Shown here one piece after another: positions 5,343 to 62,564 of a stretch of 64,000 nucleotides of DNA. A program made the position numbers and the translations under genes. This DNA comes from Caldilineales bacterium. GTDB taxonomy: Bacteria; Chloroflexota; Anaerolineae; JAAEKA01. The first letter of the stretch is position 1, and every line of letters begins with the position of its first letter. The stretch covers positions 691 through 64,690 of the forward strand of contig JAWKOJ010000004.1 of the NCBI GenBank assembly GCA_041391245.1, in the 5' to 3' direction. The notes under the pieces were generated by a model. The model saw nothing but the letters and a program-made list of their open reading frames with translations, ran no database searches and had not been told where the DNA came from.

Positions 5343-6827
5343 TTATCCCCACACGCCCTCGAACGCCAGCTTCTCCTTTGACGTCCAGTACGCCTCCAGC
5401 CGTATCGGGTAGTTGCCGTTGAAGCAGGCGCTGCAATGTCCCGTCTCGACATCGATGCCGGACTCGACCGCGCGCAGCATGCCCTCGTGGGACAGGTAGG
5501 CCAGGCTGTCGGCGTCGATGTGCTGGCGGATCTCCTCGACCGTCTTGCTGAAGCCGATCAACTCCTCGCCGCGCGCCATGTCGATGCCCATGAAACAGGG
5601 ATGGCGCACGGGCGGCGAGCTGACGCGCACGTGGACCTCGGTTGCGCCGCCCTCGCGCAGCAACCGCACCAGCGGGCCGGACGTGTTGCCGCGCACGATG
5701 CTGTCGTCCACCAGCACCACCCGCTTGCCTTCCAGGTTGGCCCGCAGCGGGTTGTATTTTAGGTGTACCCCGGAGCGCCGCAGCCGGTCGTCGGGCTGGA
5801 TGAACGTCCGGCCGATGTAGCGGTTCTTGGTCAGCCCTTCGGTGTACGGGAGATCGGACGCGATGGCGTAGCCGATGGCGGCCGGTGTTGCCGAGTCGGG
5901 TACGCCAACCACGATGTCGGCGTCGGCCGGCGCCTCGCGGGCCAGCGCCTCGCCCAGCCGCTGCCTGACCCGGTGAACGCTCTGGTTTTCGATGACTGAG
6001 TCGGGGCGGGCAAAGTAGACGTACTCGAAGATGCAGAAAGCGCGGCTGGCAGGCGGCCGGTTGAACGGTCGAAGGCTGTGAACGCCCCTGTCGTCCAGTC
6101 GCACGATCTCGCCCGGCTCCACCTCGCGCACAAACTCAGCGCCGATGGTGCCCAGCGCGCACGACTCCGAGGCGACCACATAACCGGCCGGGTGCCCGTT
6201 GGCGGGGAGATGGCCGATGCAAAGCGGGCGCAGGCCCAGCGGATCGCGCACGGCAAACACCGCGTCCCGGGTCAGGATCACCAGCGAATAGGCGCCCTCG
6301 GCCTCCGCCATGAAGTTGCTGAGGCGCGCCTCCCAGTCTGGCCTGCCCGAAACCGCACCCGGCGCCGGCGCGGCCAGCATCTGCGTGATCACCTCGCTGT
6401 CGCTGGAGGAGATCAGCCCGACGCCGCGCTCCAGCAGGTTGCGGCGCAGCTCCAGCGCGTTGGTCAGGTTGCCGTTGTGGCCGACGCCCAGCGGGCCGTA
6501 CATCGTCTCGATCAGATAGGGCTGAACGTTGCGCAGGTGGCTGCCGCCTGTCGTGGAGTAGCGGTTGTGGCCAATGGCCAGATGGCCCTTCAGCGGGCGC
6601 AGGTTGTCCTCGTTGAAAACCTGATGCACCAGACCCATCCCCTTGTGCGAATAAGCGGCCCAGCCGTCACAGGTCGTGATGCCGGCGCTCTCCTGGCCGC
6701 GATGCTGCAACGCGTAGAGCGCGAAAAACGCCACCCGTGCGACATCACTGCCCGGCGCGTAGATGCCGAAAACGCCGCATGCTTCGTGCGGTCGGTCGAG
6801 GTCGTCGTCAAAGATGGGTTGGGTCAT
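5343..6827 (-). CDS. purF: Amidophosphoribosyltransferase
   Basis: Likely start is 'MTQPIFDDDLDRPHEACGVFGIYAPG' (ATG at 6827). Ntn Cys in 'ACGVFGI', 'HRGQESAGI', PRPP loop 'VVLVDDSIVRGNTS', C-terminal Cys cluster 'CSACFNGNYP'. The upstream extension to 6917 has no homology. Confidence 0.93.
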   Translation of the reverse strand: MTQPIFDDDLDRPHEACGVFGIYAPGSDVARVAFFALYALQHRGQESAGITTCDGWAAYSHKGMGLVHQVFNEDNLRPLKGHLAIGHNRYSTTGGSHLRNVQPYLIETMYGPLGVGHNGNLTNALELRRNLLERGVGLISSSDSEVITQMLAAPAPGAVSGRPDWEARLSNFMAEAEGAYSLVILTRDAVFAVRDPLGLRPLCIGHLPANGHPAGYVVASESCALGTIGAEFVREVEPGEIVRLDDRGVHSLRPFNRPPASRAFCIFEYVYFARPDSVIENQSVHRVRQRLGEALAREAPADADIVVGVPDSATPAAIGYAIASDLPYTEGLTKNRYIGRTFIQPDDRLRRSGVHLKYNPLRANLEGKRVVLVDDSIVRGNTSGPLVRLLREGGATEVHVRVSSPPVRHPCFMGIDMARGEELIGFSKTVEEIRQHIDADSLAYLSHEGMLRAVESGIDVETGHCSACFNGNYPIRLEAYWTSKEKLAFEGVWG

Positions 6828-8972: not shown

Positions 8973-9779
8973 TCAGAGCTGCGCTGCGTAGCGCACGCCG
9001 TTAATGAAGAGTGGCAGGCCCAGCAGGCCGCGCTCGCCGCGGTGGACGCGCGGGTGTTGCTGCGGCAGGATATGGTCCTCGGGGTGCGGCATCAGCCCCA
9101 GAATCGTCCCGCTGGCGTTGCAGATGCCCGCGATGCCGTTCTGCGATCCGTTAGGGTTCCACGGGTAGACAACATCGCTGGTAGTCACGGCTTCAGCCGC
9201 TTCCGGTGTGCTTGCGTAGCGCAGCGCGACCAAACCGGCGCGCTCAATGGCTGCCAGCGTCGTCGCGTCGCGCGCCACGAATTTGCCCTCGCCGTGGGCC
9301 ACCGGGCAGTAGATCGGCTCATCAAGCCCGGCGGTCCAGATGCTCGGGCTGGCCAGCTGCGGCTGGAGGTAGACCCAACGACACTCGAACCGCGCCGAGT
9401 CGTTGCGCGTCAGCGTCGCAAGCTGCGTTTCCGATCCATCCGGGGTAGCCAATCCTGGCAGCAGACCCGCCTTGACCAGGACCTGAAACCCGTTGCAGAT
9501 ACCGATGACCGGCCGCCCAGACTCGACGAACGCCTGGATCTGCTCGCCGAGTTGGTGGCGAAGCATCACCGCCCACAGCTTGCCCGCGCCCAGGTCGTCG
9601 CCGTAGCTGAACCCGCCCGGAAGCGCCAGCACCTGATAATCGGACAGCGATCGCTCGCCGGCAGCCAGTCGATTGAGGTGCACGATCTCAGGTGCGCCGC
9701 CGGCCAGCTCGAACGCCAGCGCTGCCTCGCGGTCGCGGTTGGTGCCCGTCGCGTGCAGGATCAGGATACGTGGTTTCAT
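8973..9779 (-). CDS. purQ: FGAM synthase glutaminase subunit
   Basis: Homology begins at 'MKPRILILHATGTNRDREAA' (ATG at 9779). Nucleophile elbow 'ICNGFQVLVKAGLLPG'; 'GLMPHPE' near the C-terminus. The ORF-track extension to 9926 is rejected. Confidence 0.9.
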   Translation of the reverse strand: MKPRILILHATGTNRDREAALAFELAGGAPEIVHLNRLAAGERSLSDYQVLALPGGFSYGDDLGAGKLWAVMLRHQLGEQIQAFVESGRPVIGICNGFQVLVKAGLLPGLATPDGSETQLATLTRNDSARFECRWVYLQPQLASPSIWTAGLDEPIYCPVAHGEGKFVARDATTLAAIERAGLVALRYASTPEAAEAVTTSDVVYPWNPNGSQNGIAGICNASGTILGLMPHPEDHILPQQHPRVHRGERGLLGLPLFINGVRYAAQL

Positions 9780-59371: not shown

Positions 59372-62300
59372 TTACACGGAACGCAAGACACCGGCGTCGA
59401 CCGACGCCGGTGTCTTGCGTTCCGCCCACGATAGTTGCTGGTTTTGCCAGGCATCACTGACCTGTGCCAGCGATGCGGCCGCTACCGCTTGCCCGCTTCG
59501 TCCGATCAGAGCAACTACGGCATCTGCTGTCACAACGCCCACAGGTGCGACGGGCAAGCCGGTCATCGTCTCAATGAACGTTTCGACGTCCTGCGGTGCA
59601 ATCTCAACCAGGAAGCGGCCCAGCGACTCGCAGAACGCGATGGTCGCGTCGCTCAGGTCACCAGTCTGCGGCACATCGGCCAGCCGCAGTTCGATGCCGT
59701 GTCCGCCGGCCAGCGCCATCTCCGCCGCCGCAACCGCCAGCCCGCCCTCCGAGCAGTCGTGGCAGGCCCGCACCAGGCCGGCTGCGATGGCGCGGTGCAG
59801 GGTGCGGTACAGTTCGAGGGCGCGCCTTCCCTCACCCCAACCCTCTCCCAAGGGGAGAGGGAGCAGGAAGCCAGAGACACCCTCTCCGTCGGATGTTCCC
59901 TCTCCCACAGGGAGCAGGAAGCCAGAGACACCCTCTCCGTCGGATGTTCCCTCTCCCACAGGGAGCAGGAAGCCAGAGACACCCTCTCCGTCGGATGTTC
60001 CCTCTCCCTGTGGGAGAGGGTTAGGGTGAGGGAAGTTCCGCCACCAACTCGACCCACCCATTTCTCCCGCGTCTCTCCGATCGCGTAGATCAGATCCCGG
60101 CAGCCTTCAGATCCAGTGTCACGGTCCGGGCAACGTCGGGCACGACCGCCAACGCCGAAATCACCAGCGTCCCCGGAATGGCGTGCTTCTGGCCGTCGGC
60201 GCCGGTGTATTCGTTGTTGAGGCTGTCCTTGCCGGAGACGAACGGCGCACCGTAGGCGACCGCGGCGTCATGGCACCCCTGCGCACAGCGCACCAGGCTG
60301 CCCAGGCGATCGGGCAGATTGGGGTTGCCCCAGGCGAAGTTGTCCAGCAACGCCACCTGGTCCGGATCGGCGCCTACCGCGACCACGTTGCGCATCGCCT
60401 CGTCCACCGCAGCCCAGGCCATGTGATAGGGATCCAGGTCGGTGAAGAACGGGTTGACCCCGACCGCGAGTGCGACGCCACGGACTGGGCTGATGGACCG
60501 GTAAATTGGTAGATTAGTAGATTGGGGGAGAGACAACCCGTCCGCGGGCACAAGTCGTGTGTCTAAGGGAACGATGACGGCTGCGTCGCTGGGGCCGTGG
60601 TTGCGGATGCCGGTGAACGGCTTGACCACTGTGCCGCCCTGTACCTCGTGGTCGTACTGGCGCACCACAGCCTCCTTGCTGCGGGTTTCTGGCGCGGCCA
60701 GCAGCGCCAGCAGCGCGCCGGTCAGATCGCCGGCTTCTGGCTGCTGCCGGACAGGTGTTGCCGCAGGAGACGACCACTCGGCTTGCAGATGCCGCCGCGG
60801 GATACCGTCGTGCAGGAATGTGCAGTCCAGCGCGCCCACAACCTCGCCCTGATAGCGGATCGTCAGCCGGCCGTCGCCGGTGAACTCGCCCAGCGCGGTT
60901 GCCTCCACATCCAGACTGGCGCAGATCGCTTGCAGCCGCGGCCAGTTGGAAGGCGGCACGGCCAGCACCATGCGCTCCTGCGCCTCGCTGAGCCAGATCT
61001 CCCACGGGCGCAGGCCGGGGTACTTCAGCGGGGCGCGCTCCAGGTGGACCTCGGCGCCCAGCGCCTCGCCCATCTCGCCCACGGCCGAGGACAGCCCGCC
61101 CGCGCCGCAGTCGGTGATGGCGCTGTACAACCCCTCGTCGCGTGCGATCAGGATCGCCTCCAGCGTCTGCTTCTCGTGGATCGGATGGCCGATCTGCACC
61201 GAGCTGCTGGCGATTTCGCCCGTCTGATGATCCATCTCCATGCTGGAGAAGGTCGCGCCGCGCAGCCCGTCGCGGCCGGTGCGGCCGCCCATGACGACCA
61301 CCAGATCGCCGGCTTGCGGCTCGGTGCGGTGCGAACCGTTTGGCAGAATCCCCAGGCAGCCGCAGAACACCAGCGGGTTCGCTGTGTAGCCGGGGTCGTA
61401 GAGGATTGCGCCGTTGACGGTCGGGATGCCCATCTTGTTGCCGTAGTCCTCGATGCCCGCCACCACGCCGTCCTGGATGCGCCGCGGGTGCAGCACGCCG
61501 GCCGGCAGCTGGTCAGGCGGCAGGTCCTGGGGACCAAAGCAGAGGATGTCGGTGTTGGCGATCGGCCTGGCGCTGACGCCGATCACGTCGCGCACTACCC
61601 CGCCCACACCTGTGTTGGCGCCGCCGAACGGCTCCAGCGCCGATGGGTGGTTGTGGGTCTCGACCTTGAACGCAAGGTCGAAGGTATCGTCGAAGGCCAC
61701 GATGCCCGCGTTGTCAACAAACGCTGAGCACACCCAGGGTTTGTTCGCCTTTTCGGTAGCGGCGCGGATGTAGGTCTTGAGGATCGAGTCGATCTGCTGC
61801 TCGCGCACGACCCCGCGAGCGTCCGTCTCGCGGTAGTCGATCAGCGCCTTGAAGGTCTTGTGGACGCAGTGCTCCGACCACGTTTGCGCCAGCGTCTCCA
61901 GTTCGACGTCGGTCGGCTCGCGGCTTTCCTCGCGGTAGTACGTTTGAATCGCCTGCATTTCTGCCAGGTCCAGCGACAGCCGCCGCTCGCGGCTGATCGC
62001 AAGCAACTGCTCGGGCGTGGCTCCGGTCAGCGGGATCGTCTCGACCCAGGCGCGCGGTCCGGCGTCAGCCTGCGCCACGAAAGGCGGCAGGACTCGCCGG
62101 TTGACCGTCCACGTCTGGATCACCTCGTTGGCCAACAGGCTGGCAGCAACGCGTTGGACTGTTGCGTGGGACAGCTCGCCGGCGAGGTCGTAGCGCTGGC
62201 CGGTGGCGACCTTGGCCAGCCCGCTGACGCCGATCAGCGCCGCGCCGGCCAGCAGGTTCTCAGCCACGCTGTCGGTGACTCCCGGGTGCAGCGTCACTTC

Positions 62301-62564
62301 TACCGACCAGCGGCCGGCTGGCAGTTCCGGCGAATCGTCCGCGAGGGGGAACCAGCGAATGTGCTCAACCACCGGATCGTGCAGCAGCGTGTTGCTCAGC
62401 CGGCTGACGGCCGCTTCGTCCAGATCACCCTTGAGGAAGTAGAGATCGGTGACCGTCAGCGATTGTACGCGAGTCACGCCCAGGCTGGCAGCCTGGCGGC
62501 GCAGACTCTCGCCCCGGACATCGGCCTCTCCTGGTTTGATTGAGACTTCGACGCGATAGATCAT
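59372..62564 (-). CDS. purL: PurS-PurS-PurL fusion (FGAM synthase II), with two frame breaks (60096..60098, 60066..60068) and an in-frame repeat insertion
   Basis: ORF 60090..62564 contains two PurS-like modules ('[20 protein letters not shown]..', '[30 protein letters not shown]'). It then has PurL motifs '[10 protein letters not shown]' and '[26 protein letters not shown]'. After '..LDLKAAG' homology continues as '[10 protein letters not shown]' and then 'EMGGSSWW...[19 protein letters not shown]' (ORF 59372..60061) in successive frames. Confidence 0.85.
59377..59424. other. Perfect 23-bp-stem palindrome at the convergent gene junction
   Basis: CGGAACGCAAGACACCGGCGTCG-AC-CGACGCCGGTGTCTTGCGTTCCG. 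It starts 17 nt after the surface-protein stop and lies inside the last 17 codons of the purL ORF. No U-tract on either strand. Confidence 0.6.
59829..60032. mobile_element. MITE-like element: 33-bp terminal inverted repeats flanking 3 x 51-bp tandem units, inserted in-frame in purL
   Basis: Left arm CCCTCACCCCAACCCTCTCCCAAGGGGAGAGGG (59829..59861) is the near-exact reverse complement of right arm CCCTCTCCCTGTGGGAGAGGGTTAGGGTGAGGG (60000..60032). Internal units start at 59862, 59913 and 59964. Total 204 bp = 68 codons with no stop in the purL frame ('[12 protein letters not shown]([17 protein letters not shown])x3..WGEGR'). Coordinates are anchored on the ORF track and may be off by 1. Confidence 0.7.

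Follow-up and report, generated by a model that had tools for sequence, protein, structure and literature searches.

Probable inverted BoxC pair with a triplicated middle part in frame inside purL of a Caldilineales bacterium

What is a block of hairpins and tandem repeats doing inside the codons of purL, and how did it get there? The question is raised by a stretch of 64,000 nucleotides from an uncultured Caldilineales bacterium of the phylum Chloroflexota (assembly GCA_041391245.1, contig JAWKOJ010000004.1, positions 691 to 64,690 of the forward strand), referred to below as the window, in which the gene of this central enzyme of purine synthesis (PurL, FGAM synthase II) carries 204 bp of repeats. 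A preliminary description of the sequence had called the block "MITE-like" (miniature inverted-repeat transposable element), a label that is descriptive only; in the main its observations proved real and its reading correct, with the amendments given below. The block is very probably an inverted pair of BoxC elements whose middle part has been triplicated, placed in frame inside purL. Its parts are as follows.

60000-60032, minus strand: 5' arm in purL sense, a BoxC/triplex motif (TM) of the form CCCTCACCC-TAA-CCCTCTCCC-ACA-GGGAGAGGG, encoding 11 residues
59829-59861, plus strand: 3' arm in purL sense, the inverted BoxC/TM motif, encoding 11 residues
59858-60008, no strand assigned: three units of 51 bp (17 codons), each consisting of a spacer and a hairpin core, detected by Tandem Repeats Finder (TRF)

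Both 33-nt arms match the pattern CCCTCACCCNNNCCCTCTCCCNNNGGGAGAGGG with no mismatches, and no match arose when the window was shuffled 100 times with its dinucleotides preserved. In the arrangement CCCTCACCC-NNN-CCCTCTCCC-NNN-GGGAGAGGG the two arms show three differences over their 33 positions, each of them in a loop; the preliminary description had placed both arms correctly but had counted only one or two mismatches. Together with their flanks the arms form a 47-nt inverted repeat of 85% complementarity in a repeat search. TRF reports 3.0 copies of a 51-bp period over 59858-60008, matching at 100% and free of indels. The three exact units had been described before as bracketed by the arms, but the array overlaps the inner ends of both arms, and the stretch between them is 138 nt long, or about 2.7 units. 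The hairpin core CCCTCTCCC-NNN-GGGAG is present in four direct copies within the element, at spacings of 57, 51 and 51 nt. There are no stops over the 204 bp in the local purL frame on the minus strand, where translation through the region gives 21 residues, three times 17 residues and, further on, another 22; the insert junctions of the predicted product read RNYPHPN... and ...GEGWGEGAPSVD. The RNA fold predicted for the region has an energy of -145.8 kcal/mol (z = -7.7 against shuffles). In this genome the 51-bp unit occurs in purL only, and the 138-nt inter-arm block has no second locus in 18 genomes of the family. Since neither is matched elsewhere, the triplication would be recent and specific to this lineage.

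By their sequence the arms belong to the dispersed, G/C-rich family described as BoxC, PIT or "intrastrand triplex motif" (TM_ECO). TM_ECO is reported as a motif of 37 nt, with 23 copies in strain MG1655 of Escherichia coli, all of them intergenic; its loops are of type A (TTA) or B (CCG), and it often forms inverted pairs without an associated mobility gene (PMC4666352, Holder et al. 2015, where earlier accounts of BoxC by Bachellier and co-workers and by Hoyne, Maher and co-workers are cited). The likeness extends to the 9-nt blocks CCCTCACCC, CCCTCTCCC and GGGAGAGGG (or their complement) with 3-nt loops, found in both purL arms, and to the occurrence of both loop types, close inverted pairs, tens of copies per genome and the lack of an associated transposase. 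The genome (5.2 Mb in 67 contigs, 64% G+C) holds 35 arms at about 20 loci with a common outer flank GACTYN, so that the genome-wide count, one of the checks proposed at the outset, found the arms not to be unique and the 51-bp unit to be confined to purL. They are arranged as inverted pairs of 85-100 bp, of which there are many, as solo arms and as larger arrays, with loops of the TAA/CAA and CGG types on the C-rich strand. A 46-nt arm consensus matches 5426 of 5426 complete E. coli genomes, at a median of 18 places and with 80-95% identity, and an E. coli copy downstream of ugpB has the same three 9-nt blocks and the same TAA loop as the purL arm. Within the class the distribution is patchy: 15 of 121 genomes match, a few of them with 38-58 copies, while a reversed-pattern control gave 0-1, and arms are present in other families of the class. 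G018, G066, G108 and G006 are examples of genomes with many BoxC pairs. A search against Rfam returned nothing above threshold and only miRNA-like noise.

The same site in related bacteria is found empty, simply occupied or amplified. In the sister genera within the family (G004, G010 and G009) and in other families it is empty and reads GGSSWLRRF-GAAAVGVPPQPPTD-ALDLY, and orthologues from other genera carry GGSSWLRRFGAAAVGVPPQPPTDALDLY at the position of the insert. The loop is short in most of the 120 closest PurL homologues, and the distance from TMDLK to HDCSEGG takes its modal value of 63-64 residues in 47 of the 66 close homologues with recognisable anchors (one anchor being mis-assigned). 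The preliminary description had given about 20 residues between the GGSEY and HDxSEGGL regions of PurL proteins; orthologues with an empty site have about 39 from GGSS to HDCSEGG. A simple, unamplified pair stands at the same codon in a member of the same genus (G003, protein P0003) and in two metagenomic relatives, P0002 from a wastewater metagenome and P0001. These simple versions are 28-39 residues long (28 in G003/P0003) and lie in intact PurL proteins of 1004-1017 aa. Across the occupied lineages the arms can be aligned; the spacers between them show no relationship and differ in length. Relative to the empty site, the loop is short of about 9-14 native residues, which bears out the earlier suggestion that native sequence was partly replaced. 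Because relatives hold the unamplified element, its insertion predates the triplication, as had been supposed when a later amplification of the internal unit was proposed. This distribution indicates that the purL insert is acquired and not native. G013, G016, G006 and P0004-P0006 have related elements in this loop too, shifted onward by a few residues (HPHPQ.LSLRGRG...PLPLGEGLGVRV is one), and these are best regarded as independent events.

The position of the insert in the protein was examined on an AlphaFold2 model of the P0003 PurL, a relative with a simple insert, built from a 105-sequence alignment (mean predicted local distance difference test score, pLDDT, 86.7; predicted template modelling score, pTM, 0.90). 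The insert, residues 846-873, is modelled as coil, with pLDDT below 50 at 849-857, between a short helix (841-845) and a well-predicted helix (879-891) that leads into the HDCSEGG strand of the C-terminal AIRS_C domain. Alignments of the sequence with solved PurL structures are interrupted at the insert. The model places the insert in what would be an unstructured, low-confidence loop of PurL, in keeping with the tolerated surface loop that had been predicted. Being in frame, free of stops and located in a variable loop, it would be read through in translation as a Pro/Gly/Glu-rich loop. Repeat DNA in purL looks like a tolerated passenger rather than a new function, and no evidence for a function of the insert was found.

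Some further features of PurL were observed in relatives. Inserts unrelated to BoxC occur in the same loop of other Chloroflexota (P0020 and P0103; DFGFRISDFGLEDDH... in P0020), and foreign sequence seems to be generally tolerated there. A second variable loop precedes the second AIRS domain; in G004 (L003, at about residue 640) it holds in-frame heptad tandems of QWSMVNG/QWPMVNG, and in P0003 residues 602-612 form a low-confidence Gly/Trp-rich stretch. Some relatives (L014 in G030, P0077, P0091, P0096 and P0103) encode triple PurS-PurL-PurQ fusions, about 1280-1350 aa long, in which a glutamine amidotransferase domain stands at the C-terminus.

The following history is proposed. An inverted BoxC pair would have entered purL in the ancestor of a genus-level clade, and about 9-14 residues of the native loop would have been lost at, or after, insertion. 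The insert may have been retained because its length was a multiple of three, because it was stop-free in frame and because it fell into a variable, unstructured loop of AIRS_C. Inverted arms of this kind also give direct repeats, here of 17-21 nt and 51-57 nt apart, because each hairpin core is itself palindromic. The growth of the spacer plus core to three identical units is most likely due to slippage during replication, or to unequal exchange, between these direct repeats, and selection would let through in-frame expansions only, the unit of 51 nt being equal to 17 codons.

The BoxC family is found in frame in at least five further genes of this genome, which agrees with the earlier comparison of the purL event to the in-frame insertions of Rickettsia palindromic elements (RPEs). 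The genes are listed here.

C2:409,700-413,300 (outside the window): DnaE-like gene with a 223-bp BoxC cluster in the PHP domain (the Pfam match spans the insert) and two G-rich repeat inserts
C42:14346-14704: methyltransferase dependent on S-adenosylmethionine (SAM), with a pair flanking its own 48-nt tandem units, ESLSDTFSQRESVPVP repeated
C27:61474-61569: MmeI-type methyltransferase, with arms just before the NPPF motif; the domain match spans the insert
C13:131920-132000: ADH-like protein with in-frame BoxC
C36:22519-22550: PMT_2-like membrane protein with in-frame BoxC

The DnaE-like gene contains three 1-nt frameshifts as assembled. Two of them fall at short runs of G/C that immediately precede the BoxC cluster, and the third is about 180 nt from a G-rich repeat. 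Arms also occur outside genes: an intergenic array at C22:17474-17771 consists of four tandem units of 72-74 nt, each with one BoxC arm, and is closed by an inverted arm.

Several observations weigh against the reading of the block as a tolerated, inherited and later amplified BoxC pair. The match to the PurL profile is not contained in one open frame but is split over two open reading frames (ORFs), as shown by the following features.

60090-62564, minus strand: 5' part of purL, ORF1, 824 aa, a PurS-PurL fusion with an early TGA at 60092-60090 (profile and orthologue match)
60096-60098, minus strand: frameshift site 1, GGG (after AAG) where the frame of the orthologues needs GGGG (DNA alignment with G003, G004 and G010)
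60066-60068, minus strand: frameshift site 2, GGG, one base short (ETR-G-EMGGSS; DNA alignment with the same three genomes)
59372-60061, minus strand: 3' part of purL, ORF2, 229 aa, with the insert as residues 10-77, followed by the C-terminal AIRS_C domain (profile match)

Further, from HDCSEGG to its end this PurL is only 56-61% identical to its three closest relatives, which share 79-85% among themselves, and such a diverged C-terminus would look like the pattern expected under relaxed constraint. For the 5' arm (purL sense) identity is 91-94% between this genome, G003 and P0002 and 76-79% to P0001, while four-fold degenerate sites of the flanking purL are only 56-69% identical; since the arms are far better conserved than these sites, plain neutral decay of one old insertion is insufficient as an account. 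Finally, no spreading agent was found in this genome, whose two Y1 transposase genes (PF01797, RAYT-like) have no arm within about 1 kb.

The first two of these points bear on the possibility that purL is a real but recently inactivated pseudogene, in which repeat expansion, frameshifts and the diverged C-terminus all reflect relaxed selection. ORF1 matches the PurL profile TIGR01736 (E 4e-147) over positions 4-554 of 718, gives PurS hits as well, shares 83% identity with a 1017-aa orthologue from the same genus and ends in ...LDLKAAGI*. Residues 83-208 of ORF2 match profile positions 597-718 in a different frame. The preliminary description was right that the local frame is open across the 204 bp, but it overlooked that one nucleotide is missing from each of two G-runs, which lie 64 and 34 nt upstream of the insert, and because of these two frameshifts the assembled purL is broken even though the element itself keeps the frame. 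With the frame restored, PurL is 1064 aa long, compared with single frames of about 966-1027 aa and one PurQ fusion of 1279 aa in relatives. A pseudogene could account for two lesions within 30 nt of each other and for the divergent stretch, which comprises the last ~70 residues and a C-terminal extension of ~20 residues (window 59372-59600, minus strand), whereas the N-terminal 810 residues are equally related throughout among this genome and the three relatives. BoxC/TM loci in E. coli are, moreover, reported to be unstable and tied to local genomic instability (PMC4666352). The assembly contains a single purL, which favours errors in the consensus, but since the genome is only about 79% complete a second one could be missing; an intact, nearly identical PurL allele from another assembly was sought among 5.8 billion proteins with the read-through PurL and not found, the best matches being those of the three related species.

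Against inactivation, the 824 + 229 codons contain no stops or further lesions, and identity by codon position (0.73, 0.79 and 0.57) still leaves the third position the least conserved. The genes purM, purF and purQ (1922-2902, 5406-6779 and 9060-9767, minus strand) are intact and form a group near the beginning of the window; purL is about 50 kb away, with a polyketide synthase (PKS) cluster in between. PurQ works only together with PurL, which in this PurS-PurL type has no glutaminase domain of its own. Each lesion takes 1 nt from a short G-run beside a strong hairpin, a signature shared by two of the three frameshifts of the DnaE-like gene, while the long PKS ORFs of the window (2449, 2093 and 1836 aa, 19 kb), which served as the yardstick for the frameshift rate because rpoC is absent from the assembly, are unbroken. 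The relatives keep the insert in intact genes. Inactivation of purL is for these reasons considered unlikely, and the two deletions are most likely consensus errors beside a strongly structured repeat and not signs of a dead gene. In G007, a member of the family (L016, G007:C32), purL shows an in-frame TGA and split matches, which may be a case of assembly or of a pseudogene.

With purL taken as a living gene that holds an inherited BoxC pair, the high identity of the arms still has to be accommodated, and homogenisation with other copies, re-insertion or replacement, or a constraint at the DNA level must be added to the proposed history. A speculative extension, which is put forward with considerable doubt, is that BoxC pairs are an actively maintained, pan-bacterial element extending from Proteobacteria to Chloroflexota, whose arms are kept uniform by a conversion or mobilisation machinery and which time and again enters or overwrites the same tolerant loops of housekeeping proteins, slippage then producing in-frame length polymorphism. 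Its signature would be arms conserved beyond synonymous sites, unrelated spacers at one orthologous site and the independent colonisation of the PurL loop. Candidates for the machinery fared poorly. A link to RAYT was rejected, as neither Y1 transposase gene is flanked by arms, and a link to a DUF559 nuclease is unsupported here, the one weak match (20.5 bits) having no arms in its surroundings and the nearest one 25 kb away. No target-site duplication is visible at the purL junctions in comparison with empty sites, and no parent insertion sequence or adjacent transposase was found.

A constraint at the DNA level leads to the possibility that the insert is functional, either as a nucleic-acid structure (a hairpin or triplex with an effect on translation, on the stability of the mRNA or on recombination nearby) or as a peptide loop that benefits PurL. 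The excess of arm identity over four-fold sites, the great stability of the predicted structure and the occurrence of related elements in the same loop of several lineages are in line with it. The arm hairpin of P0001 is, however, decaying (26/33 identity, with stem mismatches in the 5' arm), which argues against a strict constraint on the DNA; spacers are unrelated and variable in length, most PurL homologues do without the insert, including those of sister genera, and the same repeat is found in unrelated genes and in intergenic DNA. No Rfam family rose above noise, and in published tests in E. coli BoxC/PIT acted neither as a promoter nor as a terminator and left RNA polymerase unaffected (PMC4666352). 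A functional insert is accordingly held to be very improbable.

That the block, or its three-copy part, is an assembly artefact (a collapsed, expanded or chimeric repeat) has a similarly slight chance. BoxC arms are found at many contig ends in related short-read assemblies. The starts of two contigs of this genome (C10:1-206 and C12:1-200) are reverse complementary through a BoxC arm; these contigs probably overlap, the assembly having broken at the repeat, so the arms do disturb assembly. Three assemblies made independently from other samples nevertheless have the arm pair at this codon, purL continues colinearly to either side of the block, and the reading frame is kept, which a random mis-join would achieve one time in three. 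The probability that the segment is a native, lineage-specific linker of PurL that merely resembles the repeat is close to negligible: it is common to four related lineages at one position, but the identical arms occur 35 times in unrelated contexts of this genome, in other families of the class and in E. coli, and the site is empty in sister genera.

A putatively translated, inverted BoxC pair in purL would carry a repeat known in E. coli for decades into the codons of a central metabolic enzyme in another phylum, and it connects the literature on the "triplex motif" with that on palindromes inside genes (RPEs and intragenic REPs). The natural series of PurL sites, from empty to simple pair to amplified pair, can be used for questions of slippage and of loop tolerance. 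For annotation it is of consequence that such repeats can split genes in assemblies and inflate the counts of hypothetical proteins, and that frameshifts near them are suspect.

Among known systems, REPINs consist of two inverted palindromic units and a spacer, can fold into one long hairpin, also occur as solo units and are extragenic (PMC3116915, PMC3337134). The BoxC arms resemble them in their inverted units with a spacer and in the presence of solo units; they differ in that no single-copy RAYT gene flanked by arms was found here, in the lack of a GTAG tag (the flank is GACTYN) and in their position, REPINs being extragenic. Intragenic REPs are palindromes tagged with GTAG/CGTC, often dimers, that add 20-82 residues inside ORFs and are frequent in genes of DNA synthesis and repair, including dnaE and dnaE2 (Di Nocera et al. 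2013, PMC3733652). The present elements share with them the short palindromes inside ORFs, and the DnaE-like gene of this genome has copies too, but the arms are without the GTAG/CGTC tag and the RAYT-like genes are unflanked by arms. RPEs are dispersed palindromic repeats of about 100-150 bp that are said to encode a conserved peptide (PMC10969869, PMC3733652). They are comparable as in-frame palindromic repeats in unrelated housekeeping genes, at places tolerated by the fold and inherited by related species. The sequence family found here is, in contrast, of the BoxC type and is used in several reading frames, and it shows a tandem amplification that is not reported for RPEs in PMC10969869 and PMC3733652. 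Since its arms match BoxC, the purL element is classed as working like an RPE and not as a member of that family, a distinction drawn without comparison to RPE sequences. From TM_ECO itself it differs in location and not in sequence, as the copies of MG1655 are intergenic and those in purL and in at least five other genes here are inside ORFs; in its host, Chloroflexota being a phylum absent from the main text of PMC4666352; and in that the pair stands in the codons of an essential-pathway gene with its spacer tandemly amplified. BoxC/TM has long been known, and what appears unusual here is an intragenic, presumably translated position combined with in-frame tandem expansion.

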